Assembly: GCA_014729995.1 (NCBI GenBank) | Contig: WJIZ01000029.1 | Coordinates: 12,779 to 76,778 of the forward strand | Direction of reading: 5' to 3' | From: Candidatus Woesearchaeota archaeon | Lineage (GTDB): Archaea > Nanobdellota > Nanobdellia > Woesearchaeales > WJIZ01 | Length of the DNA stretch: 64,000 nucleotides | Shown here: piece by piece, positions 20,376 to 36,685 of the stretch | How the letters are laid out: each line of letters starts with the position of its first letter | Position numbering within the stretch: position 1 is the first letter of the stretch | Position numbers and translations under genes: made by a program | Notes under the pieces: generated by a model | The model's input: only the letters and a program-made list of their open reading frames with translations | What the model was told of the DNA's origin: nothing | Database searches by the model: none

Positions 20376-20522
20376 GCTGAAAATCCTGATTATATACTAT
20401 ATATAGTTTACGAAATTAACGCCAATTAATACTAAAATTTATAAAGGATTAGGAGATTTCACTTAAAAAAGAGGGGGCTATTTGAAGCATTCTGTATGTT
20501 TTCACCCTGGTTTGTGGTTAAG

Positions 20523-21596
20523 ATGATTATTGGATTGCCAAAAGAAACTAAGTTGGGCGAGTTTAGGGTAGCTCTTATTCCGGAGCATGCCGCTATTTTA
20601 GCCAGGGCAGGCCATACTGTATTAGTAGAGAAAAATGCAGGCAAGGGTTCAAAATTTTCTAACAGGGATTATCAAAGGGCAGGGGCGGAAATCGTAGAGA
20701 ATGTTTACGATTGTGAGATGATTGTAAGGGTAAAAGAGCCTCCTCTCGCTACCATAAAAAAAGGCCAGGTTATAATGGGCTATCTCCACATCGAGAAAGG
20801 CCAGAACATGGCCCTGCTGAAGAAACTTTTGGACCAAAATACATCTAGTTATGCCTATGAAGAAATAAGAAACGAAAAAAAAGAGCGGCTTGTTAACCTG
20901 GGCAAAGAAGCCGGAATTGTAGGCATGTACGAAGGCCTAAGGCTGTGCGGCAGGATAAGGGAAAAATTTGGCCTTGTTAACAGGTTCAGAAAGCTTAAGC
21001 CGATAAAGACATATTTCGATATTGATGAGGTATATGAAGTTTTAAGCAAAGCCGGCCTTCACAACGGCGTTAATATCTACATATTAGGCAAGGGAAGGGT
21101 TTCTTCCGGAGCGCAGGAAGTCCTGAAATATACAGATATAATCCCCAATGTGCTTTACAGGAATGAGACCCCTTACATAAGTAAGTATCTCCCCCATGCC
21201 GATATAATTGTGAATGCAGTTGACTGGTATCCCGATGAGCCGAGAATAATAACCAAGGACATGCTTAAGCTCATGAAGAGAACAGCAGCCATCATTGATA
21301 TCAGCTGTGATGAAAACGGCGCTGTCGAGAGCTGCATTCCCACAACATGGCAAAGGCCCACCTATGTATTCAACGGCATAACTCATTATTGTGTCGATAA
21401 CCTGCCAAGCGCAGTCCCCCGCAATTCTTCGATAAGGTTAAGCAACATGATTATCCGGCATGTTCTTAGAGTTGCAAATAACACCGGCTACTCAAACGGC
21501 CTAATGACAAGGAACGGCATATTTGAATACGCCAGGAACAAGGGCAGGCTGGAAGAGTTTGAGCAGCAGGCAACAGCCATGGAAGAGTTCGCTTAA
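20523..21596 (+). CDS. AlaDH/PNT-family NAD(P) dehydrogenase, alanine dehydrogenase-like.
   Basis: MIIGLPKETK..E.RVAL.P N-terminus. Rossmann motif ILGKGRVSSGAQEV. ATG 20523 is preferred over the track start 20496. Confidence 0.7.
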   Translation: MIIGLPKETKLGEFRVALIPEHAAILARAGHTVLVEKNAGKGSKFSNRDYQRAGAEIVENVYDCEMIVRVKEPPLATIKKGQVIMGYLHIEKGQNMALLKKLLDQNTSSYAYEEIRNEKKERLVNLGKEAGIVGMYEGLRLCGRIREKFGLVNRFRKLKPIKTYFDIDEVYEVLSKAGLHNGVNIYILGKGRVSSGAQEVLKYTDIIPNVLYRNETPYISKYLPHADIIVNAVDWYPDEPRIITKDMLKLMKRTAAIIDISCDENGAVESCIPTTWQRPTYVFNGITHYCVDNLPSAVPRNSSIRLSNMIIRHVLRVANNTGYSNGLMTRNGIFEYARNKGRLEEFEQQATAMEEFA

Positions 21597-21637
21597 TTCT
21601 AAGAAATTTTTTATATTAGTTCATCATAAGATGCCGT

Positions 21638-22339
21638 ATGGCCAAAAAAACTGCTAAGAATACAGAAGCAGCCATGCGTACATTAATTATTGATAATGGC
21701 AGCCAGTATCTGAAGAAGATAGAAGAACATGTTAATACTGCTGCTTCAGAAAAAAATATTGATAAGCATGAAGTAGTCAGGCTGAGCCCTTCTGAAGTTC
21801 AGGATATGTATAATAAAGATAAGCAATTCTTAAATCGATTTAATTATGTAATTTCATCTGGTTCATCAAAATACAGCAAAGCAGACACAGAATTCCATAA
21901 TGATCTGAAAGAAAAATTGTCAGATTCTGATTCCACTTTTTTGGGCGTATGCCATGGAGCCCAGCAATATGCTACATCCCATGGAGCAGAACTTAAGAAA
22001 GGAGAATACATGCACCAAGGAAAAAGAGAATCAAGAGTTGTGAAATATCATGATTCTTTGAAAGGCATTCATAATGAAGGAAAAATTAGCCAATATGGCC
22101 ATCATAAATGGTTTGTTCCCAATAACAATAAGGCAAGCAATCTCGAGATAATCGCAGAGGGCGAGACAAAATCAGGAGAAAAATTTGTCGAGATGTACAA
22201 AGTAAAGGGAAAAGAGCATTATGGGGTGCAGTTCCATCCTGAAAAGGGAGATGGAAAAGTGATCAAGAATCTGTTTGAGCAGGCCTATCGAAGAAATATG
22301 AAAGATAATTCAGTAAAAGAATACAAGAATGCTGCTTAA
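21638..22339 (+). CDS. Class-I glutamine amidotransferase, GMP-synthase subunit-A-like.
   Basis: LIIDNGSQY. Catalytic GVCHGAQ (Cys) and HYGVQFHPE (His/Glu) motifs. Confidence 0.6.
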   Translation: MAKKTAKNTEAAMRTLIIDNGSQYLKKIEEHVNTAASEKNIDKHEVVRLSPSEVQDMYNKDKQFLNRFNYVISSGSSKYSKADTEFHNDLKEKLSDSDSTFLGVCHGAQQYATSHGAELKKGEYMHQGKRESRVVKYHDSLKGIHNEGKISQYGHHKWFVPNNNKASNLEIIAEGETKSGEKFVEMYKVKGKEHYGVQFHPEKGDGKVIKNLFEQAYRRNMKDNSVKEYKNAA

Positions 22340-23001
22340 TTATCTCCGGAGTACTCTGAAGCAAGCCTGAAATAATTCTCAAAGAATTTCTGCGTACCGT
22401 CCTCTATGTTAAATTGGGCGCTGTATATAGGGGCTGCGGAATCTATCCCGCTTACCAAGACAGTATCCATGAATGCTAACAATTGGATTACCCTCTTTTG
22501 CCCTGGCCTCCTTTTTTGTTTTTTTTCAGGCAGTACTGCATAAGTATTAGACAGCTGAAAAGCCAGTTTGTCAATGCCTTCAAAAACAGGGTATGGTAAA
22601 CTGGAAACAGTTATCTCATGAGCAGATTGGTACTTTTCTTTTTCAGAATCAGGAACTCTGTCTATTGCCCAATTATATGCATTATTTATTGCCATATGGC
22701 CGGCGTTTATGCCTAAGATTGGTATGTTCTCATTAGCTGCATTCTGGATTAAGTTATATAGATTCAGAACATGGGGATCTATCTCAGCTCTGGTTTGAGG
22801 CAACCCCACTTTTGCTGTTCCAGGGGATAAAACCAAAGCATCATAATCCATAAGTTCTGCTGGATTGATATGTTTGTAATCGTGAACACCCTTAATCGAA
22901 TTCCATTCATCGGATAAGGTCTTGCCTAGTGAAGAGAGAAAGTTATTAAGGTATTCGCCATCTGGGGTTAGCCCAAGTGTTATTATGCCCAGCTTTTTCA
23001 T
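22336..23001 (-). CDS. GATase1-fold protein with degenerate catalytic residues. Probable pseudo-enzyme.
   Basis: ILGINAGHMAI replaces the G-x-C-x-G motif (Cys to Asn). AQFNIE replaces the FHPE motif (His to Asn). Convergent with the canonical GATase and overlaps it by 4 nt. Confidence 0.45.
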   Translation of the reverse strand: MKKLGIITLGLTPDGEYLNNFLSSLGKTLSDEWNSIKGVHDYKHINPAELMDYDALVLSPGTAKVGLPQTRAEIDPHVLNLYNLIQNAANENIPILGINAGHMAINNAYNWAIDRVPDSEKEKYQSAHEITVSSLPYPVFEGIDKLAFQLSNTYAVLPEKKQKRRPGQKRVIQLLAFMDTVLVSGIDSAAPIYSAQFNIEDGTQKFFENYFRLASEYSGDN

Positions 23002-23065
23002 AGCAGAACACCATGTACAATACTATTTAAATCTTTTGATTTTTAACTACTTATAAGAAACAACA

Positions 23066-23536
23066 CTATAGCTCTTTGCTCAACTTGACAGTATAATCCT
23101 TAAATCCAAACTTTCTATATAATTGCAGTGCTTTTTTATTATCCACGTGAATCTCCAAAGAAACATGCTTTGTCTTATTGTTCTTAAGCCAATCTAAAGC
23201 AGTTTCAATAAGCTTTCCACCCAGCCCTTTTTTTCTGTATTCTTTCAAAATATATAGATTGCTGATATACCCTTTCCTGCTATATTTTGATATAGGTAAT
23301 GGCTTAAAATATTGTGCAAGTATCATGCCGACTATCTTCTTGCCTTTGACAACTATAAATAATCCGCGGTTGATATACTTTATGTCTTTCTTAAGGTAAT
23401 TGAAATAATCTTCTTTATTGTCCTCAATAAGCCTGATCGCGCCACTGTACCGGAATTCCTCTTTTTTTGAAAGCAATTTAATTTTCTTCAGGCCTTCAAA
23501 ATCTTCCATAGCTGCCCTTCGAATTTTAATTTCCAT
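23066..23536 (-). CDS. GNAT-family N-acetyltransferase.
   Basis: ..GKGLGGKLIETALDWLK...LEIHVDNKKALQLYRKFGFKD acetyl-CoA-binding motifs. Confidence 0.75.
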   Translation of the reverse strand: MEIKIRRAAMEDFEGLKKIKLLSKKEEFRYSGAIRLIEDNKEDYFNYLKKDIKYINRGLFIVVKGKKIVGMILAQYFKPLPISKYSRKGYISNLYILKEYRKKGLGGKLIETALDWLKNNKTKHVSLEIHVDNKKALQLYRKFGFKDYTVKLSKEL

Positions 23537-24662
23537 ATTCTCTTATTATCTCTTTTATTAAAAATCTGCTGAGGTTGAACCTTCTCGCTCTTGGAAATCC
23601 GGGAAATGTATTGATCTCTATAAACATAGCGCTTTTCCTGTCTGCGCAAAGCATCATATCTACCCCCCCAAAGCCCAGCCCAAGCGATTTGATTGCCTTA
23701 ACCGCAGCTTTCTTAGCCGCTTCCAGCTGCCTTTTCGGAAGCAGCCTTATGAAGCTTGTCTTTTCGCCTTTTGCGCCCTGCGAAATATTGGTTGTCACAG
23801 CCTCTGCATCATTGCTCCTGCCATAGCTGTACAAGACACTATCCCTGAAAACATACATTCTCAGGTCAAATTTTCTCCCCCTGATAAGCAGCGGATTGAT
23901 TGCTTCCTCTATTATTATGTCTTTCCTGAGAAGCCGGCTGAGAAATTTTTTATTTGCGGTAATATCTATAAAAGACCAGCCGTAATCAGAATGCTTGTTC
24001 ACTATCCTGCCGTTCCTAAACCTGAAATTGGTCATCCACCTTCCTTTTTCCAGGTATGTTATGCCCTTGCCCATGCTTCCAAACCTCACTTTTATGAAAA
24101 GCTTGTATCCTTTGTCTAGGAGCCCTATTACGCCCCCAACTTTATTATTGTGGAATCTTTTCGGCACAAGAATTCCCGATCTGGAAACTATCTCTTTTGT
24201 CAGTTCCTTATCCCTGTCAGTGGCTAAGCTTTCAGGGGGATTTATATAAGAGATTTTCTTGTCTTTGTAGAAAGAATCCAGGGATTTTTTTACATCCTTC
24301 CAGAATGACCTGAATTTCTCATAAAATGCCTTATTGCCGTATATGCCCTTATATTGCTTAGGCTCTATATGCTTATCCCAGTATTCAAATGGAAAGAAAA
24401 GAAAGACTATCAACTCTTGGGTGTTTAATTTAGGCAAATCTCCCCCAAGCAATTTCCAATAATCGGTTTTCTTTAACGAAATTCCAGAATTATAAAAAAA
24501 TCTCCTGCTCTTGCAGAATTTCCTGAATGTGTCAAAGTCTTTCCAGTCCCCGACCGCAAGCAAAGTTTTTGTTTCCACCATTTTCTTTATCAGGGAATTC
24601 CTTATAAAAGTTTGGTTTAAAATGGGGTTTTCATAATCTTTATAAAGCTCTCTTAAAAACAT
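23526..24662 (-). CDS. ATP-grasp ligase, RimK/YheC-YheD-like. It overlaps the GNAT gene by 11 nt.
   Basis: KVRFGSMGKGI, FDLRMYVF and EINTFPGF ATP-grasp motifs. The ATG at 24662 is preferred, because the track start 24875 would overlap rnfC. Confidence 0.6.
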   Translation of the reverse strand: MFLRELYKDYENPILNQTFIRNSLIKKMVETKTLLAVGDWKDFDTFRKFCKSRRFFYNSGISLKKTDYWKLLGGDLPKLNTQELIVFLFFPFEYWDKHIEPKQYKGIYGNKAFYEKFRSFWKDVKKSLDSFYKDKKISYINPPESLATDRDKELTKEIVSRSGILVPKRFHNNKVGGVIGLLDKGYKLFIKVRFGSMGKGITYLEKGRWMTNFRFRNGRIVNKHSDYGWSFIDITANKKFLSRLLRKDIIIEEAINPLLIRGRKFDLRMYVFRDSVLYSYGRSNDAEAVTTNISQGAKGEKTSFIRLLPKRQLEAAKKAAVKAIKSLGLGFGGVDMMLCADRKSAMFIEINTFPGFPRARRFNLSRFLIKEIIREYGN

Positions 24663-24668
24663 AATTGT

Positions 24669-26210
24669 ATGGCTTTCAAAGGAGGCATTCACCCGAAATA
24701 CAATAAGATAACTGCAGGAAGCAAGATAGAAAAAGCAGGCCTTCCCGGGAAAATAGTCCTGCCGATGAGCCAGCATGTGGGAAAGCCCTGCGAGCCAATA
24801 GTGAATATAGGAGACTATGTCAGGACAGGCCAGAAAATTGCTGAAAGCGACGCATTCGTCTCCGCCCCTATACATTCTTCTGTTTCAGGCACAGTAAAGT
24901 CTGTCGAAGCCCTCCCCCATCCAATAACAGGAAATCCTGTAAAATCAGTAACTATAGAATCAGACGGCAAGGATGATAAGGTGGAGATGAGGGAAAGGCA
25001 GTACGAAAACCTTTCGAATGAAGAGCTGAAAGAAATAATCAGGGAAGCGGGAATTGTCGGTCTTGGCGGAGCAGCTTTTCCTGCGCACGTAAAGTTAAGC
25101 CCGCCTAAGGACAAGAATATAGACTGCCTGCTAATAAACGGGGCAGAATGTGAGCCCTTTCTGACTACAGACCACAGGCTGATGGTAGAAAGAGCAGACC
25201 AATTATTGGAAGGCATCAGGATTATAAGGAAAATACTCGAAACAAAAGATGTTTTCATAGGCATAGAGAAAAATAAGTCCGACGCTGTCAAATTGTTGTC
25301 CGAAAAATGCAAAGGCCAGAATATCAGGGTAAAGGCTTTGCATGCCAAGTATCCGCAGGGCAGCGAAAAAAAGCTTATTTATGCCGTAAACAGAAGAAAA
25401 GTCCCTGCAGGCGGTCTTCCCATGGATATTGGCTGCGTTGTCCAGAATGTTGGCACTTGTTTGGCTGTTTTTGAAGCTGTTGCGCTCTCCAAGTCGCTCT
25501 ATGAAAGGGTCATCACAGTAACAGGCAGGGTAAACAGGCCTAAAAATATTTTAGTTAGGATAGGCTCATCAGTAAAGGAAGCCATAGAAGAGGCTGATAA
25601 CTATAAAGGCCAGCCAAAAAAGATCATCATGGGCGGACCGATGATGGGATTTGCGCTTCCCACAGATGAGCTGCCGGTAATTAAGGGCACGTCAGGAATA
25701 ATTGTCTTCAATAAGGTTGATATGGATGAGAAAAGGCAGGAAATAGAATGCATAAGGTGCGGTAAATGCGTCCAGAAATGCCCCATGCATCTTCATCCCT
25801 CATTACTGGCGAGATACGCACAAAAAGGAAAATTCGGATTGGCAGAAAAGACATTCGCCATGGACTGTTACGAGTGCGGCTGCTGTGCTTTCATCTGTCC
25901 TTCCCATATCCCCTTAGTCCACTGGATAAGGTATGCTAAGTCAGAGATATTGAGGAAAAGAGTGGAAAGGAAGAAAAAAGAAAAAAAGTCAAAAGAGGCA
26001 AAAGGCAGTGAGCATGCAGAAAAAGGGAGAAAAACAGGGGAAAGTTCAGAAAAGAAAGAAAGTGAAGAAGAAAAGAAGGAAGAAAAACAAGCCAGCAACG
26101 TCCCTGAATCAGGAAAGGAGAAAATAGGTGCCGAAGAGAGCAATGAAAAGCCGCAAGCGGCTGAAGAATACAAAAAAGAAGATAATCCAGAAGAAGACAA
26201 AAAAGAATAA
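24669..26210 (+). CDS. rnfC: Rnf electron-transport complex subunit C, with a ~90-aa Lys/Glu-rich C-terminal tail.
   Basis: GGIHP N-terminus. GLGGAAFPAHVK. INGAECEPFLTTD. Two 4Fe-4S CxxCxxC motifs. Confidence 0.9.
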   Translation: MAFKGGIHPKYNKITAGSKIEKAGLPGKIVLPMSQHVGKPCEPIVNIGDYVRTGQKIAESDAFVSAPIHSSVSGTVKSVEALPHPITGNPVKSVTIESDGKDDKVEMRERQYENLSNEELKEIIREAGIVGLGGAAFPAHVKLSPPKDKNIDCLLINGAECEPFLTTDHRLMVERADQLLEGIRIIRKILETKDVFIGIEKNKSDAVKLLSEKCKGQNIRVKALHAKYPQGSEKKLIYAVNRRKVPAGGLPMDIGCVVQNVGTCLAVFEAVALSKSLYERVITVTGRVNRPKNILVRIGSSVKEAIEEADNYKGQPKKIIMGGPMMGFALPTDELPVIKGTSGIIVFNKVDMDEKRQEIECIRCGKCVQKCPMHLHPSLLARYAQKGKFGLAEKTFAMDCYECGCCAFICPSHIPLVHWIRYAKSEILRKRVERKKKEKKSKEAKGSEHAEKGRKTGESSEKKESEEEKKEEKQASNVPESGKEKIGAEESNEKPQAAEEYKKEDNPEEDKKE

Positions 26211-26211
26211 G

Positions 26212-27183
26212 ATGCCGGAAAAAAAATTTATTGTGGAAAGTTCGCCCCATATATTTTCTTCTAATTATAAATACAAAGTAATGTGGCTTGTTGTGCTGGC
26301 TTTGCTGCCTGCCGCAATTATGGGGGTCATTAACTTTGGTGCGCGTGCCCTCCTCGTTATCATAGTAGCCTTATCAGTCTCCATACTTACTGATGCACTT
26401 TTCGAAAAGCTGAAAGGAAAGCAGATGGTTGTTGAGCAGGGAGCCGCGGTTGTTACCGGCCTGCTGCTCGGAATGATTCTTCCCCCTGCAGTTCCGCTGT
26501 GGGTTCCTGCATTAGGCAGCTTTACCGCGATAGCGCTGGCAAAGCACGCTTTTGGCGGTGCGGGCATGACCATCTTCAATCCTGCGTTGGTAGGAAGGGC
26601 ATTCCTTGTTGCGAGCTTCCCTGCAATAATGACGAGATACACATGGCCAGACGGCATCACATCAGCATCCCCATTGGGCATGCTGAAGGCTGAAGGCTAC
26701 ACACATGCTCTTTCCTTTTTCGGGAGCAGGTTAGCAGCTTACAAGGCAATGTTTTTCGGGAACATAGCAGGCAGCATAGGTGAAACTTCTGCTTTGGCTC
26801 TGCTTATCGGAGGCTTGTTTCTTGTACTGGTGAAAGTTATTGACTGGAAGATTCCAGCTGTCTATATTGGCACTGTATTTGTCCTGACATGGCTGTTTGG
26901 CCAAGATCCCATTTATCATATTTTAGGAGGCGGCCTTTTCATCGGGGCATTCTTCATGGCAACAGCTTATGAAGGCATGCCCATAACCCCTAACGGAAGA
27001 GTCTATTTTGCCTTGGGCCTGGGCATATTGACAGTCGTGATAAGGTTATGGGGCGGCTATCCCGAGGGCGTAAATTACTCCATACTGCTGATGAATGCAG
27101 CCTCTCCCCTGATTGAAAGATTGACAATAAGAAAGCCTTTTGGCTATACGAAAAAGAAAAAAAATGCTGAATCAAATGCTTAA
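26212..27183 (+). CDS. rnfD: Rnf subunit D.
   Basis: VESSPH near the N-terminus. Polytopic membrane protein. ATG at 26212 lies directly after the rnfC stop. Confidence 0.85.
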   Translation: MPEKKFIVESSPHIFSSNYKYKVMWLVVLALLPAAIMGVINFGARALLVIIVALSVSILTDALFEKLKGKQMVVEQGAAVVTGLLLGMILPPAVPLWVPALGSFTAIALAKHAFGGAGMTIFNPALVGRAFLVASFPAIMTRYTWPDGITSASPLGMLKAEGYTHALSFFGSRLAAYKAMFFGNIAGSIGETSALALLIGGLFLVLVKVIDWKIPAVYIGTVFVLTWLFGQDPIYHILGGGLFIGAFFMATAYEGMPITPNGRVYFALGLGILTVVIRLWGGYPEGVNYSILLMNAASPLIERLTIRKPFGYTKKKKNAESNA

Positions 27184-27760
27184 ATCAACACTTGTATTGT
27201 CTTTAGTGTGCTTAATAGCCGCGGCTTTGCTCGGCACAGCCTATATTTTTACAGAGCCTGGAATAGAAGAGCAGAAAGAAGCCGCGCTAAAGGAAAGCCT
27301 GGGCCAGGTTCATACAACAGCAGATGATTTTGAAGCAAAAGACGGCTATTTTGTAGCATTAAAAAACAGCAAAATAATAGGTTATGCGGCTGTTGCAGAG
27401 GCACAGGGCTACGGCGGCACTATAAAAATTCTTGCAGGCATAGACACGGAAAAGAAGCTGACAGGAATAAGGATAATGGAGCATGAGGAAACACCCGGCA
27501 TGGGGGCAAGTGCCCTAAAACCCGAATTTTATTCCCAGTTTAGCGGTCTGCCAGCAGATAAAATAGCCTTAAGAAGAAATGGCGGAAAGATCGATGCAAT
27601 TACTGGCGCCACTATAACAAGCTCTGCTGTTATAGATGCAGTAAAGCAGGCTCTCGAGTCAGAGCTAAGCAGCTTAAAATTCAATAATTCTATTGAAGAA
27701 GCTGATTCTGTAACTTACGCTGTTCCGGGCAATAAATCAGGAGAGATAAAAAATGGCTGA
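27164..27760 (+). CDS. rnfG: Rnf subunit G (FMN-binding).
   Basis: N-terminal TM. GYGGTIKILAGID...ETPGMGA. ITGATITSSAV FMN-attachment motif. Confidence 0.85.
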   Translation: MLNQMLKSTLVLSLVCLIAAALLGTAYIFTEPGIEEQKEAALKESLGQVHTTADDFEAKDGYFVALKNSKIIGYAAVAEAQGYGGTIKILAGIDTEKKLTGIRIMEHEETPGMGASALKPEFYSQFSGLPADKIALRRNGGKIDAITGATITSSAVIDAVKQALESELSSLKFNNSIEEADSVTYAVPGNKSGEIKNG

Positions 27761-28550
27761 AGATGATGAAGAAGAGGTAGAAGAAGAGCCTGAGCTGCTT
27801 CCGAAAGCATTCAAGCAGAAAGTTAAGGCTGTTTGGGCTGTTTTTATGAGTTACTTCAATGAATTCAGCAAGGGAATAACTAAGATAAACCCTATCTTTG
27901 TCATGGCTCTCGGCTTATGCCCGACATTGGCTGTCACTACCAGCCTGGACAATGCTGTCGGCATGGGATTTGCCACCACATTTGTCCTGCTCAGCTCAGC
28001 TGTATTTGTTTCCTCTATAAGAAAAACAGTCCCTTCCAATGTAAGGATTCCTGTTTTCATTGTTATAATTGCTACATTCGTAACCATAGCACAGCTTTTC
28101 ATCAGGGCATTTTCAGCCGAACTGAACAGGGCATTGGGAATATTCCTTCCTTTGATAGTTGTCAACTGTGTAATCCTTGGAAGGGCAGAAAGCTTTTCAT
28201 CAAGAAACAGCATATTAAGGAGCATGCTTGATGCTCTTGGTATAGGAGCAGGCTTTTCGCTGGCTTTATTATTGATAAGCAGCATAAGGGAGCTGCTTGG
28301 CACAGGGGAGCTTTATCTTTTCGGGAACAATCTTCTGAATTTAAGCTGGCTTTTTAATCCGATGCTCGCATTCATATTAGCTCCCGGTGCTTTGCTTACA
28401 ATGGGATTATTGCTCGCTTTCTTCAACTGGCTTGGCAACATTGATTTTAAGAAGCAGTCAGCGCATGTTGAAGAGCACAATGGCGATAATGCAGCCGAAA
28501 AGGCAGAAGGGGAAAGCGAAGAAGAAAAAAAGGAGGAAAAGAAAGGATAA
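27753..28550 (+). CDS. rnfE: Rnf subunit E, with acidic N-terminal and C-terminal tails.
   Basis: ALGLCPTLAVTTSLDNAVGMG and LPLIVVNCVILGRAE, typical of RnfE/NqrD. Confidence 0.85.
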   Translation: MAEDDEEEVEEEPELLPKAFKQKVKAVWAVFMSYFNEFSKGITKINPIFVMALGLCPTLAVTTSLDNAVGMGFATTFVLLSSAVFVSSIRKTVPSNVRIPVFIVIIATFVTIAQLFIRAFSAELNRALGIFLPLIVVNCVILGRAESFSSRNSILRSMLDALGIGAGFSLALLLISSIRELLGTGELYLFGNNLLNLSWLFNPMLAFILAPGALLTMGLLLAFFNWLGNIDFKKQSAHVEEHNGDNAAEKAEGESEEEKKEEKKG

Positions 28551-28563
28551 TTAAATATTCAAA

Positions 28564-29142
28564 ATGGAAAACCTGATAGCAATCCTGATAAGCATGATTT
28601 TCGTAAATAATTTCATACTCACCAAATTCCTCGGCTTATGCCCTTTTTTCGGTGTATCAAAAAAGACCGGAAATGCTGTCGGCATGGGATTTGCAGTAAT
28701 CTTTGTGATGGGAATAGCTTCCGCAACAAGCTGGCTTCTTTATACCTTTGTGCTCGCTCCCCTAAGCCTTGAGTTTCTCCAGATAATAACTTTCATACTT
28801 ATAATAGCTTTCCTTGTACAGCTTGTTGAAATATTCATAAAAAAGTATTCGGATTCCCTGCATAAGGCTTTGGGAATATACCTTCCCCTGATCACCACCA
28901 ATTGTGCTGTATTGGGTGTGGCTTTCCTTAATATACAGGAAGGATATTCATTTTTAGGCAGCCTAGCCGGCGGATTAGGCGCAGGCATAGGCTTTATGCT
29001 GGCTCTGCTGCTGATGTCTGGCATAAGGGAAAGGGTTGAGCTGACGGATGTCCCAAATCCTTTCAGGGGATTGCCGATTGCATTTATAATCGCTTCCCTC
29101 ATGTCGCTGGCATTTTTGGGATTTTCAGGTATGTTACAATGA
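28564..29142 (+). CDS. rnfA: Rnf subunit A.
   Basis: FLGLCPFFGVSKKTGNAVGMG and LPLITTNCAVLG, typical of RnfA/NqrE. Confidence 0.85.
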   Translation: MENLIAILISMIFVNNFILTKFLGLCPFFGVSKKTGNAVGMGFAVIFVMGIASATSWLLYTFVLAPLSLEFLQIITFILIIAFLVQLVEIFIKKYSDSLHKALGIYLPLITTNCAVLGVAFLNIQEGYSFLGSLAGGLGAGIGFMLALLLMSGIRERVELTDVPNPFRGLPIAFIIASLMSLAFLGFSGMLQ

Positions 29143-29993
29143 TGGTATTGCTGTATTCAATAATTGTACTCGGGCTGATGGGGACTGCTGCAGGCCTTAT
29201 CTTAGCTTATGCTTCAAAGAGGTTTGCAGCCTGGCAGGATCCAAATGTAAATCAGATAGAGGAAGTTCTTCCAGGCGTTAACTGCGGGGCATGCGGCTAT
29301 GCCGGCTGCCACGCTTATGCACAGGCTGTTGCATCAGGAAAAGCGCCCATAGACCTGTGCAGGCCCGGCGCGAATAAAGTGGCTGCGCAAATCGGGGAAA
29401 TAATGGGCCAGGAAGCAGGAGAAAAAGAGCCAAAGGTAGCAAAGAGGAAATGTAACGGAGGAAATAAAGAAGCGAAAAAGAAGTTTGATTATGGCAGCAT
29501 ACAGACCTGCAAGGCAGCCTCTTTGGTAAATAACGGCTACAAGCAGTGCTCCTACTCCTGCCTGGGCTTTGGAGATTGCGCTTTAGTCTGCCCTGTGGGT
29601 GCAATAAACATGGATGAAAACAACCTCCCACAGATTGACATGGAAAAATGCATAGCATGTGAAAAATGCGTGATTGAATGCCCTCGCAGCATATTAGAGA
29701 TGGTTCCTAAAAAGGCGCGCGTTCATGTCAGGTGCAGGTCAAAAGATTCAGCAAAAAATGTCGTAAAAGCATGCTCAGTGGGCTGCATTGCCTGCAGGAA
29801 ATGCGAAAAAGAATGCCCTTTTGATGCCATACATGTTATTGATAATTTAGCTGTGATTGATTATTCTAAATGCACCAGCTGCGGCAAGTGCGTTAAAGTA
29901 TGCCCCCACAGCATAATTGAGCAGGAGCCTTTGCCTAAAAAGCCCGGAAAAAAGAAGAAAGAAGGCGAAGAAAAGAACGAAGAAGCAGACTGA
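29139..29993 (+). CDS. rnfB: Rnf subunit B (ferredoxin-like).
   Basis: N-terminal TM. LPGVNCGACGYAGCHAYAQAV. Several CxxCxxCxxxCP 4Fe-4S motifs. Confidence 0.85.
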   Translation: MMVLLYSIIVLGLMGTAAGLILAYASKRFAAWQDPNVNQIEEVLPGVNCGACGYAGCHAYAQAVASGKAPIDLCRPGANKVAAQIGEIMGQEAGEKEPKVAKRKCNGGNKEAKKKFDYGSIQTCKAASLVNNGYKQCSYSCLGFGDCALVCPVGAINMDENNLPQIDMEKCIACEKCVIECPRSILEMVPKKARVHVRCRSKDSAKNVVKACSVGCIACRKCEKECPFDAIHVIDNLAVIDYSKCTSCGKCVKVCPHSIIEQEPLPKKPGKKKKEGEEKNEEAD

Positions 29994-30109
29994 TTCTTAT
30001 GTAACTACCGTAAAGTAATATATATAAAAAATCGAAATATTTATATATAATTAATTTCAAAAATATACTCAATCCTATAATAATGTGGATTTATATATTT
30101 TATTTGCAA

Positions 30110-33100
30110 ATGAAAAAGAAGGTGGGCCTTATGAATTCTAGAATAATTTTTTTAGTAGTTTCAATGCTGTTTGCCGCAGGGATTGTTTCAGCTGTCAACT
30201 GCTGGCAGTATGATGATTCGCAGTCAGACTGTGAAGCTGCAGAAGACTGCCAATGGGAGCAGGATGACTGGGGAGGCTGGTGCCAGGAAAAAGGTTGCTG
30301 GCAATTATGGGATCAAACAGACTGTACTAATTCTACTGATGATCTAAATTGTTTATGGAGATCTTCAACTTCTTCTTCTGGTTGGTGTGAACAAACTTCT
30401 TGTTATTCATGGGAAGGAACCAATGCCGCAACATGTGTTAATAATTCTGCAAATAAAAATTGTCAATGGCAAAATCAATGTTTTGGATACAATCAAAATG
30501 TAAACTGTCCTTCTCTTGGAATTGATGAATGTAGTAACGTAACTGGTTGTACTTGGGGTATGTGTGAAGAAGTAGGCTGTTGGAAATATGATTATACCGA
30601 TCAAGACACATGTCAAGCACAAACAGGTTCTATGGGTAATTCTTGTCGATGGGATAATAATGGAGAATATTGTTATGAACTAGGTTGTTGGGATTATGAT
30701 AATACTAATTATACTGCTTGTGTAAACAATGCTAATGGTTTAGCTTGTCAATGGAATGCTGCTTATCAAAGATGTGAAGAAATTCAATGTTGGAAGTTTG
30801 ATTATACTAATTCATCTGTATGTACAACAGATGCTCTAAATAATTATAACCTAACCTGTACTTGGGATGGACAATATTGTATGAATTCTCAATGTTCTAA
30901 TTTGAATACTCAATCTAATTGTGATACTACACAAGGATGTTCTTGGAAAACACAAACTGGAGGAGGATGGTGTGAAGAAGCACAATGTTGGATCTTCGAC
31001 CAATGGAACGGTGGAACAGAACAACAATGTAATGGTACAAATATAGAACCAGGTAATGATGCATATTCTTTTAATCTAAGTTGTGAATGGGATAATGGTG
31101 CTTGCTACCCTAATGTAGATGAAAACTGTTCTACATTCACAACAGAATCTGGATGTATGGATACATATTATTGTTGGTGGCAATGTTCTGACTGGGACAA
31201 TCAATCAACTTGTACATGTAATGATCCTAAAGATTTAGGAGAAACATATGATGATAACTTCTTCCAAAAATGGAATCCTGGATGTTATATATTCGATATA
31301 AATTATGATTTATGTAATGCTACTTATGCAGGAACAAATGCAAGCTACTGCGAGAATGACACTTCTCTTAATATTCCCTATGACTGCTCATGGCAAAATG
31401 GCACAGGCCAGGAAGAATGCCTTGCTGTTTCGGCATGCCACGATGTTATTGGCTGCCAATTTTCGGCACAGCTTGGCACAGGTCTTTGCGATCCCGAGCC
31501 TGGACATGCATTTCAAAGCCATATAGAGAATGAGGGGCTCAACTGCACAATGATAAACAACACGCAGTTATGCAATAATATACCTGCATTATCTACCTGC
31601 TGTGAATGGAAAGAAGGAACATGCAAGGAAAAGCTTGGCAAAGAATGCTGGGAAAACATGGATAAAAAGATGGAAGATGATTTTGATGGAATTAAATCAT
31701 GTGCAGATGCAAGTATCTTTGCAAACCCAGAAAAAAAATGTAATGAGATGGGAGGTTATCCTTTATTTATGCCTTGTAAATGGAATTCTTCTATAAGTAA
31801 ATGTGAATTTAAATCAACTCAGATATTTGGAGATGCAAGCCAGACTTTATCCCTTATAGAAAATCAGAAAAATTGTGAAGCTGCTGGTGGAAAATGGGTT
31901 CAGGAATGGTACTGCGAGGGAAACAGAAGTGTTCCAGCAGGAAGATGTGAACAGAAAGCAGACGAAGAAAATAATTGTGACGTTGCATGTTTCGCTTGTG
32001 AATTCAAATTCGATGGTACAAACTTTACTAATATAACTAATGCAAAAGCTACATGTTATGGATCAGATTTAGGTTATTGTGAATTTACTGCAGATTCAAC
32101 AGCAAAAAACGGACTAGGAACTTGCAGAGCAAAAGAAGAATTCAAGGCAGGTATTGCTTCTGATTGTACTTCTGATTGTGGAAGTTGTACTTATATGGGT
32201 AATCCTAACGCTGCTTCAAACTTTGATGGTAACAAACAATATTCAAATTGTAATTCTCCAAGTTGTTATTGTGGACAAGCATATGAATTTGGAGATGTAA
32301 AATGTAAATGGGTAAATGATAATACTAGTAATCAAGGAGGATATTGTGTAGATTCAACAACAAAAACCTGCCAGGATAGCTGTGACAGGTGTTATTCAAA
32401 ATCTGACTGTAATAATGATGGAAGAATGGCTTTCAATGCAATAGGAAGTTGTGAATGGGTAACAGAATCTGGAGAAATATCTACCAGTGCTACAGAAGGT
32501 ATCTGCAGAAAGAAAGGAAGCGGAGAAATCTGTTGGGATGGAATTGATAATGATGCAGACGACCTAATTGATTGTGCTGATAATAATTGTTATTCAGATA
32601 GTTTCTGTGGTTTTGTTTCAGGAGACTGTCCTAGTATTACAACCGCAGCAGTATGTAATGCAACTCAATTAGATAATGGATTAAATTGTACTTGGAAATC
32701 TGATGCATGGGGTAGCTTCTGTGACTTCCCAGGATCAGATTGTTATGAAAGAGATGGAACAAACCAAACCTATTGTGAAGCAGCAAGCGGATGTCAATGG
32801 GGTTCTGACTCTATGGGAGGTTCAGGATGGTGTGAACAAGATTGGGATTCCGCAAACGATTGTTGGAGCATGATAACTGAAGCTACTTGTACTGGTGGTT
32901 GTGTATGGACTAATGATACTTGGTGTACTCAAAATCCTACAGATCAATGGTGTCAAGACTTTGGAGGATGGTGTGATCCTGCAGCATTCGCTCCTAAGAA
33001 CTGCTGGAACAGAGATGATACTAATCAATCATGGTGTGAAAATTTAACTGGTTGTTTCTACACAAACTCAACAGGAATGTGTATGGAACAGGGATGTTGG

Positions 33101-36100
33101 AATTATGATTCTAACGTAACTGCATGTAATCAACAAGATAATTGTCAATGGAAACAGGACGATTGGCAACAATGTGAAGTAGACTGGAGTGTAAATTGCT
33201 GGTTATATGACGATAATGAAACACAATGTGATACTGCACCAGAATGTACTTGGTTTGATCAAGGCAGCAATTGGGCATATTGTGGCAACAAATTTGATGT
33301 TTGCTGGAATTACGGTAGTGATTCTAGTTCATGTGATTCTGATTCTAATTGTTACTGGACTGATTGGAATAGTTGTGAAGCTATATGTAGAGATGAAAAT
33401 ACTTATGGTACTGAATCAAGCTGTAACGCTGTAGATGGATGTCATTGGAAATCAGGATGGTGTGAAGATACTAGCATGGGTGGAAGCAGTAGTGGAGTAG
33501 ATTGTGGAAGTAAAGATGAAAGCACTTGTATTGCTGCAACCGAGTGTAAATGGAAAAATCCTGGATGGTGTGATCCTATAGGTTTCTCTGGAGGATCAGC
33601 AGCAAATTCAGCAGGAAGTGGTAATAATGTAGGTTCTGAATGTTGGAAATATGATGGAGAAGAAGCATTATGTACTGACGCTTCTACTATAAACATTAGT
33701 TGTTCATGGATGGACGAACCTTGGCCACATTGTGAACCTGACTGGGGTTCTTCTAATTGCTGGGATCGTAATGAAACTACTTGTAATGAAAGTTGCTGGT
33801 GGAGTGAAGAAGGATGGTGTACTAATGCTAATGAACAATGTAAAATGAATTCTTCTTTATCAGAAAATTCAACTTTATGTGATGCCAATAGTGCTTGTAA
33901 TTGGGCTACATTTAATGAGGGATGTAGAGAAGATTGGAACTCATTAGATAGTTGTTATCAAATTTGGGATCAAGATGATTGTACAAATGCAACAAATAAT
34001 CAGACATGTAAATGGGAAACTTATTATGATCAATTTGATGGTCAAGAAAGAACGGGATGTAGACCTAAATTCGAAGCTTGTCGTGATTTCAGTTTAAGTT
34101 CTTCAGAATGTAATGCTTTAGACGGTTGTTTCTGGAATGAATTTATGGGTATGTGTGACGCTGTTTGTTTCAATATGTCTTTAACAGAACAACAATGTGG
34201 TGCAATCGCTGGTTGTACTTTTGGAGGAGGAAGCTGTGAACCTTCACTATTTACAAAGCAAACTGCAGGAGAATGTACTGGTGCTGGAGGTAAATGGTTA
34301 AACGGATGGTGTAATCCTCCTGGACAAGGAAAAATGTTTGCAGGTATGGATATGGGTCCACCAGTACCAATAGTTACAGAAAATTGTAATTCTAATGGAG
34401 AAGTGGCTTATGCAGATATTTGTGGTGTTGGAATTAAAGATACAGGTAATAGTTTTATTTTTGGTTCACAAACTGCCGATTTTAGTAATGTAGGAGTATG
34501 TAATGGTCAGAATGTTATAACCTTTGGATCAAGTAACTTTGGTATGGGAAGTGCAAACCAAGGTCAGGGAACAAGCCCTGTAAAATACTATGTATATCTT
34601 GATACAGATGGATCAACAACAGGAGGATGTTCGCCAGTAAATAATAAATCAATGAAAGGTTATGAATTCTTCCTTAAGCTTGAATCAACATATAACAGTA
34701 CTCTAGAAAAATCAACAGAAACATTTACTGCAAAGAGATGCAGTTTATCTGGATCTACTTGGAAGATTGCAGATATCAGCCTAAGTACATGGAAACAACA
34801 AATGTGTTCCATGGCAGGAGGGCCTTTAATAGCTGTAACAAAAACAGATCTAGAAAAATTCCCTGAATTATATGATTCAGAAAAAGACGTAAGAGTTTAT
34901 GTGGCAATGGCTGACAGCAGTCGTAATGCAACAGTACCTTATGATGAAGCAGGACCTGGTTGGTATACACCAGGAGCTGTTGATTTCAGTTTAGAAAGTC
35001 TATTCGGAATGGGATCTGATACAGCTAAGAATGAAGATATCATGAAGAAAGGTTATGTTGAACATGAAGACTGTTATTTAACAGGTGATGAAGATAAGGA
35101 TGGAAATGCAGATTGTGATGATTGGGACTGTCAGTATGCTTCTGGTTGTGAAAGTTCAGGAGTTAATGCAGACAACTATACAGATACTTCAATGCCAAAA
35201 ATTACAGGAATTAAGATTGAAGAATACACAGATTCTGCACTAATCATGTACTCAACAAATAAACCAACAAATGGAACACTAGCATTCTATCATAACGATT
35301 CAACATGCGCAACAACTAACGCAACAATCTATGATAAAGGAGTAACCACAACTTCCATGAGAAATCATAAACTATGGCATGATGGACACATCTACAACGA
35401 TGGTGGAGTTAGTAGTTTAGATTATGCTTTAAACAGTAGTACAGATTACTATTACAAATTGAAAGTTTGTGATTCAGGAGGAAAATGTTCTGTAAGTAAA
35501 TGTTCAAGTTTCAAAACAGCTGGAACAAGATGTGCTTATTGTAACTTCGTTACATTGATTAACTCTCCATCAGGATGGACTGTTTGGTATGATCTTAATG
35601 CAAATGGAATATACGAACACGAACAAGGTAATGTTTGTGGTCCAAAAGCTGGAATGAAAACAAACTATACTGAAGGAAGAAAGGCTAACATTAAGATGAC
35701 AGAAGATGATAGTGTTGTTGTTATGGAATTCCTGAATGTAACTTTAACAAAAACAGGACTTACATCTAAAACAAGAAAAATCTCAGAATCTGGATCATTG
35801 ATCCATGATACAACTGAAGATTATGTTGGTATGCCTTCCGCAACAAGGGATAAGATTATCAATAACCTGCATCCTGAACTCTGCAGGATAACCATTCCGA
35901 CAACAGGAGGAGATTGCTCTAAGCTTTATCATTGTGATGACAATGGCGACAATTGCGTGGACAGGACAAGCGAGGAAGGGGCTGATTTGGTTTCTTCTAC
36001 CTCAACAAGCTGTACGTGGACTATACCGTATTGTGAGTTCTCAACATGGGATGCAGATGGAAATCCGTCAGGAGGCACAACAACAACTACTTCATCTTCA

Positions 36101-36685
36101 GGCGGAGGCTCCGGAGGCGGAGGAGGGGCAGGCGTAAGCGTATCAACAGAGAAATTTGAGCATGGCAAGATATACCTGAAAGGCGAAGAAGGAAAAAAGG
36201 TAAGATACATGCTTTATGGGAATTCGCATACAGTAACTATACAGGGCATAAGAGCAGAAGAAGTTGATGTTCTTGTAAAGTCAGTCCTGATACAGGACAC
36301 CATAAAGCTTGGAGAGACAAAATATTATGATGTCACAGAAGACGGCAAGAGCGATATAGGAATCAGAGTGCACAGCATAGCCCTTAATGCAAGCTATGCT
36401 GAGCTGATTATTTCCCTGCTCAGCTATGAGCCGGAGCCGCAGCCAGAAGAGCAGCCAGAGCCGCAGCCCCAACAGCCTATTGAAGAGGAGCCGCCCGTAA
36501 CAGGCCATGTAGCAGAAGAGCCCGAAGAAGGGGAAGAAGAGCCTCAAGGGGGCACCTGGCTCGTAATATCCTTGATTGCAGCAATCGTGGTTATAGCGGC
36601 TGTAGCTGTAATAGCTGTTAAGAGGAAATCCATCCAGGCTCAACAGCATCATGAAAAGCAGCCAAGTCAAGAGAAACAGCATTAA
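30110..36685 (+). CDS. Giant surface protein of about 2190 aa. It has a signal peptide, more than 40 tandem ~33-aa Cys-rich CW-x-(Y/W/F)D modules, many N-x-S/T sequons, a Gly/Ser linker, a Pro/Glu-rich stalk and a C-terminal TM anchor.
   Basis: MKKKVGLMNSRIIFLVVSMLFAAGIVSA. Alternative starts at 30083 and 30131, the latter with a GGTGGG SD. Repeats such as GCWKYDYTDQDTCQAQTGSMGNSCRWDNNGEYCYELGCW. C-terminal WLVISLIAAIVVIAAVAVIAVKRK. Confidence 0.75.
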   Translation: MKKKVGLMNSRIIFLVVSMLFAAGIVSAVNCWQYDDSQSDCEAAEDCQWEQDDWGGWCQEKGCWQLWDQTDCTNSTDDLNCLWRSSTSSSGWCEQTSCYSWEGTNAATCVNNSANKNCQWQNQCFGYNQNVNCPSLGIDECSNVTGCTWGMCEEVGCWKYDYTDQDTCQAQTGSMGNSCRWDNNGEYCYELGCWDYDNTNYTACVNNANGLACQWNAAYQRCEEIQCWKFDYTNSSVCTTDALNNYNLTCTWDGQYCMNSQCSNLNTQSNCDTTQGCSWKTQTGGGWCEEAQCWIFDQWNGGTEQQCNGTNIEPGNDAYSFNLSCEWDNGACYPNVDENCSTFTTESGCMDTYYCWWQCSDWDNQSTCTCNDPKDLGETYDDNFFQKWNPGCYIFDINYDLCNATYAGTNASYCENDTSLNIPYDCSWQNGTGQEECLAVSACHDVIGCQFSAQLGTGLCDPEPGHAFQSHIENEGLNCTMINNTQLCNNIPALSTCCEWKEGTCKEKLGKECWENMDKKMEDDFDGIKSCADASIFANPEKKCNEMGGYPLFMPCKWNSSISKCEFKSTQIFGDASQTLSLIENQKNCEAAGGKWVQEWYCEGNRSVPAGRCEQKADEENNCDVACFACEFKFDGTNFTNITNAKATCYGSDLGYCEFTADSTAKNGLGTCRAKEEFKAGIASDCTSDCGSCTYMGNPNAASNFDGNKQYSNCNSPSCYCGQAYEFGDVKCKWVNDNTSNQGGYCVDSTTKTCQDSCDRCYSKSDCNNDGRMAFNAIGSCEWVTESGEISTSATEGICRKKGSGEICWDGIDNDADDLIDCADNNCYSDSFCGFVSGDCPSITTAAVCNATQLDNGLNCTWKSDAWGSFCDFPGSDCYERDGTNQTYCEAASGCQWGSDSMGGSGWCEQDWDSANDCWSMITEATCTGGCVWTNDTWCTQNPTDQWCQDFGGWCDPAAFAPKNCWNRDDTNQSWCENLTGCFYTNSTGMCMEQGCWNYDSNVTACNQQDNCQWKQDDWQQCEVDWSVNCWLYDDNETQCDTAPECTWFDQGSNWAYCGNKFDVCWNYGSDSSSCDSDSNCYWTDWNSCEAICRDENTYGTESSCNAVDGCHWKSGWCEDTSMGGSSSGVDCGSKDESTCIAATECKWKNPGWCDPIGFSGGSAANSAGSGNNVGSECWKYDGEEALCTDASTINISCSWMDEPWPHCEPDWGSSNCWDRNETTCNESCWWSEEGWCTNANEQCKMNSSLSENSTLCDANSACNWATFNEGCREDWNSLDSCYQIWDQDDCTNATNNQTCKWETYYDQFDGQERTGCRPKFEACRDFSLSSSECNALDGCFWNEFMGMCDAVCFNMSLTEQQCGAIAGCTFGGGSCEPSLFTKQTAGECTGAGGKWLNGWCNPPGQGKMFAGMDMGPPVPIVTENCNSNGEVAYADICGVGIKDTGNSFIFGSQTADFSNVGVCNGQNVITFGSSNFGMGSANQGQGTSPVKYYVYLDTDGSTTGGCSPVNNKSMKGYEFFLKLESTYNSTLEKSTETFTAKRCSLSGSTWKIADISLSTWKQQMCSMAGGPLIAVTKTDLEKFPELYDSEKDVRVYVAMADSSRNATVPYDEAGPGWYTPGAVDFSLESLFGMGSDTAKNEDIMKKGYVEHEDCYLTGDEDKDGNADCDDWDCQYASGCESSGVNADNYTDTSMPKITGIKIEEYTDSALIMYSTNKPTNGTLAFYHNDSTCATTNATIYDKGVTTTSMRNHKLWHDGHIYNDGGVSSLDYALNSSTDYYYKLKVCDSGGKCSVSKCSSFKTAGTRCAYCNFVTLINSPSGWTVWYDLNANGIYEHEQGNVCGPKAGMKTNYTEGRKANIKMTEDDSVVVMEFLNVTLTKTGLTSKTRKISESGSLIHDTTEDYVGMPSATRDKIINNLHPELCRITIPTTGGDCSKLYHCDDNGDNCVDRTSEEGADLVSSTSTSCTWTIPYCEFSTWDADGNPSGGTTTTTSSSGGGSGGGGGAGVSVSTEKFEHGKIYLKGEEGKKVRYMLYGNSHTVTIQGIRAEEVDVLVKSVLIQDTIKLGETKYYDVTEDGKSDIGIRVHSIALNASYAELIISLLSYEPEPQPEEQPEPQPQQPIEEEPPVTGHVAEEPEEGEEEPQGGTWLVISLIAAIVVIAAVAVIAVKRKSIQAQQHHEKQPSQEKQH

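Follow-up and report, generated by a model that had tools for sequence, protein, structure and literature searches.

A further rnfCDGEAB operon in a Woesearchaeota contig, with charged tails on three predicted subunits

Introduction

Rnf complexes are already described in the Woesearchaeota. Huang et al. (2021, Nat Commun, PMC8421398) describe rnfCDGEAB in four metagenome-assembled genomes (MAGs, deposited under PRJNA746083) of Woesearchaeota subgroup J, with a gene order like that of Acetobacterium woodii and phylogenies pointing to bacterial donors. These genomes also carry a V-type ATP synthase, pyruvate:ferredoxin oxidoreductase (PFOR), an [FeFe] hydrogenase and glycolysis. In 2024, a complete Rnf operon was reported to be transcribed in situ in Woesearchaeota MAG.221 from Lake Dziani Dzaha (PMC11606122). 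The path of electrons and Na+ through the complex has been defined in A. woodii structures (PMC11889175). Here we describe a six-gene rnf operon in a 64-kb stretch of contig WJIZ01000029.1 (Candidatus Woesearchaeota archaeon, assembly GCA_014729995.1). This whole stretch of 64,000 nucleotides (nt) is called the window, and all coordinates refer to it. The operon shares with the subgroup J and MAG.221 systems the phylum label, the six genes, their order and an inferred bacterial origin; for those systems, ferredoxin oxidation is proposed to feed an ion gradient for an A/V-type ATP synthase. It is a further case of the Woesearchaeal Rnf known since 2021 in gene order, bacterial origin and role, with expression shown in 2024.

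The main value of the analysis is therefore negative. What could be taken for a respiratory complex in a reduced archaeon is an already described, horizontally acquired and annotated Rnf operon. RnfC, RnfD and RnfB are 100% identical to MBD3164281.1, MBD3164282.1 and MBD3164286.1 (‘Candidatus Woesearchaeota archaeon’), which GenBank annotates as RsxC, RnfD and RnfB, and the rnf genes (MBD3164281-86) are already deposited there under correct names. The unusual traits of the operon are limited to charged, rapidly evolving tails on three subunits and a minor residue variant in RnfD; neither is mentioned in the available text of PMC8421398 or PMC11606122. The operon lends support to published work in which some Woesearchaeota are seen as not wholly dependent on a host and as able to turn fermentation-derived ferredoxin into an ion gradient. 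We put the probability that identity, bacterial origin and general mechanism are jointly those of a functional Clostridia/Acetobacterium-type Rnf in Woesearchaeota at roughly 85%.

Structure of the operon

We found six contiguous, intact open reading frames (ORFs) on the forward strand at 24669–29993, in the order rnfC-D-G-E-A-B. The gene for the NAD+-reducing output subunit, rnfC (24669–26210, +; 513 amino acids (aa)), scores 550.6 bits against TIGR01945 (cut-off 246) and matches profile positions 3–434 of 435. It is followed by rnfD (26212–27183, +; 323 aa), which encodes the membrane subunit for covalent flavin mononucleotide (FMN) and riboflavin (TIGR01946, 284 bits, cut-off 207), and by rnfG (27164–27760, +), encoding the extracellular FMN-binding subunit with its N-terminal membrane anchor (TIGR01947, 117.6 bits, cut-off 102). 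The start of rnfG was placed at ATG 27164, the best fit to relatives in an N-terminus comparison with the related locus L003; the ORF itself opens with a TTG at 27140. Two six-helix membrane subunits come next: RnfE (27753–28550, +; 265 aa; TIGR01948, 243.7 bits, cut-off 213) and RnfA (28564–29142, +; 192 aa, without tails; TIGR01943, 265 bits, cut-off 229). The last gene, rnfB (29139–29993, +; 284 aa), encodes the ferredoxin-accepting input subunit (NF005503, 279 bits, cut-off 252). Each subunit covers its Rnf profile nearly end to end and exceeds its NCBIfam subfamily cut-off, with E-values as low as 1e-165, far beyond chance. The Pfam domains are the expected ones: an RnfC_N barrel, the FMN/NADH-binding Complex1_51K, SLBB and a Fer4 4Fe–4S dicluster in RnfC; NQR2_RnfD_RnfE in RnfD; FMN_bind in RnfG; and Rnf-Nqr in both RnfE and RnfA. 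RnfB has an N-terminal membrane helix, a PF04060 FeS [4Fe–4S] domain (residues 44–76) and multiple Fer4 domains (a polyferredoxin).

The complete operon reported by a first-pass annotation of the window is confirmed at the same positions, and pseudogenisation, which that annotation had named as a possible objection, was not seen in the window: the six ORFs contain no internal stops or frameshifts. The genes are tightly packed, as it had said. Its ‘overlapping starts’, on the other hand, apply to only three of the five junctions, namely rnfD/rnfG (20 nt, given the rnfG ATG at 27164), rnfG/rnfE (8 nt) and rnfA/rnfB (4 nt, ATGA), while gaps of 1 nt and 13 nt separate rnfC from rnfD and rnfE from rnfA, respectively.

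Five related loci (L001 and L003–L006) have the same rnf gene order. In the window, an TTTATAAA box, a putative archaeal TATA element, lies at 24639–24646 (+), 22 nt upstream of the rnfC ATG, and the same octamer is found 22 nt upstream in L001 and 24 nt upstream in L003. Such a spacing would be expected of an archaeal TATA box whose mRNA has no leader or a very short one. One leaderless rnfCDGEAB transcript is predicted, in which the internal genes would be translationally coupled.

Type, relatives and origin of the complex

For all six subunits, the closest solved structures belong to the Na+-translocating complexes of Clostridium tetanomorphum (7ZC6) and A. woodii (9ERI), the E-values lying between 1e-20 and 1e-133, and the structures of Azotobacter Rnf1 and of the Vibrio Na+-translocating NADH:quinone oxidoreductase (Na+-NQR) come well behind as matches. 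RnfC matches 7zc6_C with E = 6e-133, RnfD matches 7zc6_D and 9eri_D with 9e-81 and 4e-79, RnfA aligns ungapped with 9eri_A (5e-66), and residues 3–261 of RnfB match 7zc6_B and 9eri_B with E of about 1e-64. The gene order C-D-G-E-A-B had been called archaeal. However, PMC8421398 gives the same order for A. woodii, the closest sequences are of the Clostridia type, and the Methanosarcina models fail.

Methanosarcina acetivorans and the window have in common six homologous subunits and an archaeal host. All six window subunits nevertheless miss the cut-offs of the rnfX_Methano models: rnfC scores 293 against 650, rnfD 187 against 400, rnfG 133 against 230, rnfE 245 against 350, rnfA 224 against 300 and rnfB 272 against 445. 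The M. acetivorans complex also includes a multihaem cytochrome c (PMC12174285), whereas none is encoded by the window operon. A CxxCH scan of the window ORFs agrees with the first-pass annotation on this point: there is no CxxCH-rich ORF, and CxxCH occurs only in the zinc-finger region of DnaJ and in one HIT-domain protein. The electron acceptor in the window organism is presumably NAD+ rather than methanophenazine. Judged by its sequences, the window operon is a Clostridia/Acetobacterium-type Rnf and not of the Methanosarcina type.

The top database matches (54–100% identity) are labelled Woesearchaeota or Nanoarchaeota, and the window RnfC and RnfD cluster with them. The nearest named RnfC homologues outside DPANN come from the Firmicutes Thermosediminibacter, Thermoanaerobacterium and Gottschalkia (52–53% identity). 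A neighbour-joining tree of the 120 best RnfC matches, midpoint-rooted and without support values, contains the window clade, whose named members are all Woesearchaeota, a second large Woesearchaeota/Nanoarchaeota clade, and a Firmicutes clade next to the window clade. About 70 of the 120 top RnfC clusters fall in the two clades bearing Woesearchaeota or Nanoarchaeota labels. The remark that Rnf has a limited distribution among archaea is accordingly right in general but not for this lineage.

The GC content of the rnf genes and their GC content at third codon positions (GC3, 0.37–0.48) lie inside the spread of the other window genes (GC3 0.44 ± 0.06), and neither measure gave a signal of recent transfer. 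This host-like composition and the synteny kept across relatives at 55–80% identity indicate that the acquisition is old, not recent. The operon would have been gained from bacteria, probably from a Firmicutes-like donor, early in a Woesearchaeal lineage, with vertical descent and host adaptation thereafter.

Cofactor sites and residues of the ion path

Residue roles were taken from A. woodii Rnf (PMC11889175) and mapped through HMMER alignments. The ligands of the intramembrane [2Fe–2S] cluster are all kept, RnfA C26 and C114 corresponding to A. woodii C25 and C113, and RnfE C56 and C139 to A. woodii RnfE C25 and C108. In A. woodii numbering, RnfA is identical to its counterpart at L22, C25, K32, E88, P107, L108, T110, T111, N112, C113, R154 and E158; the gating Leu residues, the ion pair of RnfE R67/E115 with RnfA E88, and RnfD N123, F245 and M246 are conserved as well. 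RnfC contains the [4Fe–4S] motifs CIRCGKCVQKC at residue 361 (C361–C371) and CYECGCCAFIC at residue 400 (C400–C410), and its GLGGAAFP segment matches 7zc6_C exactly or nearly so. RnfB has 24 Cys residues, with three CxxCxxCxxxC motifs and a CGACGYAGC. The covalent-FMN motif TGAT is kept in RnfG, where ‘AITGATITS’ is the same as in 7zc6_G. The window complex therefore resembles 7ZC6 and 9ERI–9ERL in RnfB architecture and in the [2Fe–2S], gating, ion-pair and flavin-motif positions, bar exceptions in RnfD.

The FMN-attachment motif of RnfD is TSAS, with Ser153 where A. woodii has Thr156. Of 120 homologues, 13 have Ser at this site; in ApbE target motifs, Ser is accepted as the residue that becomes flavinylated. 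The second exception concerns the riboflavin-binding Asp (A. woodii D249), which is Ala252 in the window, with Glu254 two residues on. In a MAFFT alignment of the 120 homologues, all of them related sequences, none of the 95 with Asp252 has Glu254 and none of the 22 with Glu254 has Asp252; some sequences read ATDY(G/A)G at the motif and others AT(A/G)YEG. This pattern argues for a carboxylate shifted by two residues, that is, for probable compensation rather than decay. Structural biologists working on Rnf and Nqr may find interest here in a clean either/or relocation of the RnfD riboflavin-site carboxylate within a clade.

Predicted mechanism and direction

The homologous structures of A. woodii and C. 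tetanomorphum suggest the following path. Reduced ferredoxin would give its electrons to the RnfB polyferredoxin. From there they would reach the intramembrane [2Fe–2S] cluster of RnfA and RnfE, and reduction of this cluster would attract a cation into the membrane site, Na+ being the probable one. The electrons would continue to the covalent FMN on the extracellular RnfG, to the covalent FMN and riboflavin on RnfD, and finally to NAD+ by way of RnfC with its two [4Fe–4S] clusters and its FMN. If the cell is fermentative, an A/V-type ATP synthase would then be driven by the ion gradient so formed.

Several points weigh against this picture of a functional, bacterially derived and energy-conserving complex. 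RnfD has Ser for Thr at the FMN site and is without the riboflavin-binding Asp, and the D252/E254 complementarity may reflect one or a few events. The A. woodii surface residues RnfA D64, T73 and E126 are A, I and G here. No homologue of ApbE, the flavin transferase required for FMN attachment to RnfD and RnfG, was found in the 64-kb window (tblastn with the L001 ApbE, best E = 8), although one may lie elsewhere in the host genome. The neighbour-joining tree, which answers the call of the first-pass annotation for a phylogenetic check of horizontal acquisition for RnfC, places the window clade beside Firmicutes but, taken alone, gives no direction of transfer. The A. woodii Na+-path residues are kept, as a check for Na+ versus H+ signatures would look for; these residues are, however, kept across Rnf and Nqr in general (PMC11889175), and therefore they permit no call on ion specificity. 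Our slight preference for Na+ comes from the two closest characterised relatives, both of which have it as their coupling ion. Genes for an ATP synthase, PFOR, a hydrogenase or a ferredoxin were not found in the 64-kb window, nor is any ferredoxin-reducing enzyme or NADH sink visible in it, so that direction and bioenergetic role are drawn from other genomes.

The forward, energy-conserving direction seems to us the likelier one, with modest confidence. The role of a core bioenergetic device, which the first-pass annotation proposed, would rest on the published related genomes (PMC8421398) and on in situ expression in another Woesearchaeota MAG (PMC11606122). Alternatively, the complex might run mainly in reverse, using NADH and an ion gradient built by ATP synthase hydrolysis or a pyrophosphatase to supply biosynthesis or H2 production with reduced ferredoxin. 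Several bacteria use Rnf, a reversible complex, in this way (PMC12174285, PMC11889175). The window gives no ferredoxin sources or sinks, and NAD-linked and biosynthetic enzymes are encoded near rnf both here and in relatives. However, the published Rnf-bearing Woesearchaeota have PFOR, glycolysis and an [FeFe] hydrogenase, which amounts to a ferredoxin-producing fermentation and speaks for the forward direction (PMC8421398). Nothing in the sequence tells the two directions apart, and we regard a mainly reverse operation as possible but unlikely.

Charged tails on RnfC, RnfE and RnfB

Compared with 7ZC6 and 9ERI, RnfC has 83 extra residues and RnfB about 23; RnfE is extended at both ends, N-terminally by 31 aa and C-terminally by about 38 aa. 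The charged tails that had been claimed for these three subunits could be measured. The RnfC tail comprises residues 431–513 (25959–26207, +), 83 aa rather than the approximately 90 aa first stated, with 24 Glu and 21 Lys; homology to 7ZC6 and 9ERI ends at residue 430. AlphaFold2, run on RnfC with a 41-sequence alignment, gave a mean predicted local distance difference test score (pLDDT) of 84, a high-confidence core and a helix at 416–456. Residues 459–513 have pLDDT below 50, and about 55 residues are predicted to be disordered. The 31-residue N-terminal extension of RnfE opens with an acidic run (residues 2–23, beginning MAEDDEEEVEEEPELLPK), and its C-terminal extension starts at about residue 228 and ends in an E/K tail at 243–265; 9eri_E aligns solely with residues 32–227. 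The K/E tail of RnfB is 25 aa long (residues 260–284, nt 29916–29990). By homology to the A. woodii structure (PMC11889175), the RnfC, RnfE and RnfB tails would all be on the cytoplasmic face.

The tails are not annotation artefacts. The DNA of the RnfC tail is purine-rich with imperfect short repeats. The junction of rnfC stop, 1 nt and rnfD ATG has the same geometry in L001, whose RnfC is tail-less, and the RnfC tail is therefore sequence inserted in frame ahead of a coupling junction that has been kept.

The occurrence of such tails is sporadic. The closest relative, L001 (RnfD about 80% identical in the best tblastn segment), has an RnfC of 438 aa with no tail. RnfC tails are present in P0002 and P0006, but their sequences are unrelated to the window tail and cannot be aligned with it. 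Tails are found on RnfD, RnfG and RnfE in L005 and on the extracellular RnfG in L006, and in some RnfD homologues from DPANN, K/E tails reach a length of 127 residues. RnfC tails of at least 50 aa occur in 4 of 19 members of the window clade, 1 of 54 of the second DPANN clade and 0 of 46 of the Firmicutes clade. The RnfE N-terminal extension, on the other hand, is common to the window and L003 (MAEDEEGPEIPELLPKKFKQ), including a PELLPKxFKQ motif. The best description seems to be that the tails are lineage-specific, fast-turnover, low-complexity charged additions, sporadic and not conserved in sequence. Most likely, they arose by slippage in purine-rich DNA and would have no conserved specific function.

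The tails were also thought to be proteome-wide, which is overstated. With the criterion of K, E or D in at least 12 of 20 residues at a terminus, such a segment is present in only about 7 of the 55 window proteins, of which three are Rnf subunits and one is DnaK. A charged C-terminus is normal for the DnaK family. Of the other proteins named as carrying tails, DnaK and the HIT-like protein do so and the ORF at 10568 does not. The HIT-domain genes are a tandem overlapping pair at 56727–57257 (−) and 57250–58014 (−). The second protein has a 63-residue E/K-rich stretch (residues 185–247 of 254), the only non-Rnf extension of comparable length in the window. A literature search on disordered or low-complexity tails in DPANN proteins returned nothing specific.

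The long C-terminal helix of RnfC in Azotobacter vinelandii Rnf1 (8AHX) is the only known parallel that we found for the RnfC tail, and it is itself unexplained. Both proteins have a charged extension right after the second [4Fe–4S] motif and share a ‘CPSHIPLVH’ segment. Past the motif, however, the likeness is compositional only, the extension being A/K/E-rich in A. vinelandii and K/E/S-rich in the window, where disorder is predicted for the last 55 residues. In A. vinelandii, the helix touches RnfH (PMC12174285), whereas no RnfH-like ORF was found in the window cluster. For structural biologists, this likeness in position and the fast-evolving tails on differing subunits may be of use.

The tails could in principle be functional modules: a proximal RnfC helix clamping RnfB as in A. 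vinelandii, tethers for partner enzymes, or an aid to solubility at the cytoplasmic face. All four are on termini that are cytoplasmic by homology to A. woodii (PMC11889175), AlphaFold2 carries the last RnfC helix to residue 456, and the acidic RnfE extension with its PELLPKxFKQ motif recurs in L003. Against these stand the tail-less RnfC of the closest relative L001, the unalignable tails of the window, P0002 and P0006, the placement of the L005 and L006 tails on RnfD, RnfE or the extracellular RnfG, the merely compositional likeness to A. vinelandii, and the failure to find an RnfH gene in the cluster. We consider a functional role improbable. The wider proposal that the tails and the RnfD flavin-site changes are adaptive traits of a distinct archaeal Rnf subtype, with the tails as a cytoplasmic scaffold, appears to us a shade more doubtful. 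If it were true, RnfB would be held by the RnfC helix and ferredoxin-producing partners by the disordered parts, and the Ser-linked FMN and moved RnfD carboxylate would retune flavin potentials for a low-energy fermentative DPANN life.

Two other explanations of the tails were considered and dropped. Thermophily or halophily is, by rough inference, a poor fit to the window proteins, which when pooled are charge-balanced (K 9.0%, E 7.1%, D 5.6%, R 3.8%). Glutamylation of the tails by the product of a neighbouring gene was rejected, as the gene adjacency is not conserved in relatives: in L003, rnfC directly follows the Zip transporter block, and in four other relatives it follows ApbE. The gene in question encodes a RimK/YheCD/TTL-like ATP-grasp ligase (23526 to ~24581, −) and is divergent from rnfC. 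Its product falls under every curated cut-off. The likely start is MVETK (ATG 24581–24579, −), leaving an 87-bp intergenic region to rnfC that contains two TATA-like boxes.

Flavin transferase neighbourhood and integrity of the operon

An ApbE gene on the minus strand, opposite to rnfC, lies upstream of it in L001 (6550–7521), L004 (7245–8309), L005 (7652–8632) and L006 (8898–9860). It directly adjoins rnfC in L006 and is within about 1–2 kb of it in L001, L004 and L005. A recurring arrangement of Dph2 ... ApbE - rnfCDGEAB ... Taw1-like is seen in L004–L006. The ApbE–rnfC adjacency is lost in the window and in L003, and in this the window differs from the four Woesearchaeal relatives just named.

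This loss might mean that the window operon is an inactive or decaying relic deprived of its flavin transferase neighbour and of key RnfD residues, given the T-to-S change at the FMN site and the D-to-A change at the riboflavin site. We judge this highly improbable. The six ORFs are full-length with every metal ligand intact, the translational-coupling junctions are preserved, and the promoter box is conserved. The RnfD changes, for their part, are common to many relatives and paired with a compensating Glu, and Ser is acceptable to ApbE. A functional complex is the reading that we retain.

Downstream of rnfB, L005 (15242–15862) and L006 (15160–15723) have an ORF of 187–206 aa immediately after the operon, with 47% identity between the two and no recorded Pfam match. 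In L005 it overlaps rnfB by 4 nt, and it has no homologue in the window. This ORF could be a lineage-specific Rnf accessory gene.

Host context

The host is archaeal, as the first-pass annotation had it. The contig, 77,078 bp long in GenBank, encodes diphthamide synthase (17330–18019), TrmB (15421–16140) and an archaeal-type prepilin peptidase (55777–56643), and GenBank labels it Woesearchaeota. In the independent assemblies L004–L006, the six-gene operon lies among genes for Dph2, a Taw1-like wyosine radical-SAM enzyme and CDP-archaeol synthase. The Zip transporter and two further genes upstream of rnf are common to the window and L003. An archaeal host and a promoter of archaeal type distinguish the window operon from those of 7ZC6 and 9ERI.

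Outside DPANN, the Rnf subunits are most similar to those of Firmicutes, and the contig also carries DnaK, DnaJ, GrpE and a bacterial-type adenosylcobalamin (AdoCbl) riboswitch. One could suppose from this that the contig is a mis-binned or chimeric Firmicutes fragment and its archaeal context an artefact. This is very unlikely, to the point of being hardly credible: the three archaeal markers are on the same contig, the operon has archaeal gene surroundings in the independent assemblies L001 and L003–L006, the Zip block is shared with L003, and the base composition is uniform.

Finally, the membrane cores of the window complex and of Vibrio cholerae Na+-NQR (7XK3) are homologous (RnfD/NqrB, RnfE/NqrD, RnfA/NqrE and RnfG/NqrC, with sub-threshold Nqr matches), but identification of the cluster as Na+-NQR is already refuted by its domain content, since every NCBIfam Nqr model lies far under its cut-off and below the matching Rnf model, an RnfB polyferredoxin stands in place of the [2Fe–2S]/FAD/NADH subunit NqrF, and RnfC bears an FMN/NADH domain and two [4Fe–4S] motifs, whereas NqrA is cofactor-free (PMC12174285). 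The first-pass call of Rnf rather than Nqr is upheld.

Other features of the window

Relative to the syntenic L003, where the Zip block abuts rnfC, about 4.2 kb is inserted between the two in the window (20412–24668). This block encodes an AlaDH/PNT-family protein (under the alaDH cut-off), two class-I glutamine-amidotransferase-like proteins, a GNAT acetyltransferase and the ATP-grasp protein described above. Directly downstream of rnfB, we found a gene for a 2200-aa protein (30083–36685, +) with 174 Cys and 87 Trp residues, no CxxCH, a signal-like N-terminus and a C-terminal membrane anchor. A second frame, open for more than 1499 aa and beginning with a signal-like segment, extends from ~59503 to beyond 64000 (+), running off the right end of the window. 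These two giant secreted proteins are probably cell-surface or adhesion proteins.

An Rfam AdoCbl-II riboswitch aptamer is located at 11620–11701 (+), with 42.3 bits against a gathering score of 36.5 and a match to model positions 1–81 of 81. It lies upstream of ORFs at 11747–12505, 12707–14086 and 14136–15122, 45 nt before the first, which encodes a DUF6580 membrane protein with a K-rich N-terminus. One of the two ORFs that follow has no family match, and the other has a weak S-layer match far under the cut-off. A bacterial-type riboswitch is unusual in a DPANN archaeon, and our literature search for cobalamin riboswitches in DPANN returned no paper making this link.

Two clusters concern cofactor maintenance. 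The first (38475–41512) encodes a coenzyme A-disulfide-reductase/NADH-oxidase-like flavoprotein (under cut-offs), lipoyl synthase and lipoate-protein ligase; in the second (43369–44600), a gene for NAD synthase precedes one for a cytidylyltransferase-like protein. Taken together, the two clusters point to lipoylated enzymes and to NAD salvage in a DPANN genome that is supposed to be reduced. The many biosynthetic enzymes encoded in the window include NAD synthase, nicotinamide mononucleotide adenylyltransferase-like enzymes, lipoyl synthase, lipoate ligase, phosphoribosyl pyrophosphate synthetase, trehalose synthase and phosphoglucomutase, and the gene content of the window is not obviously ‘reduced’.

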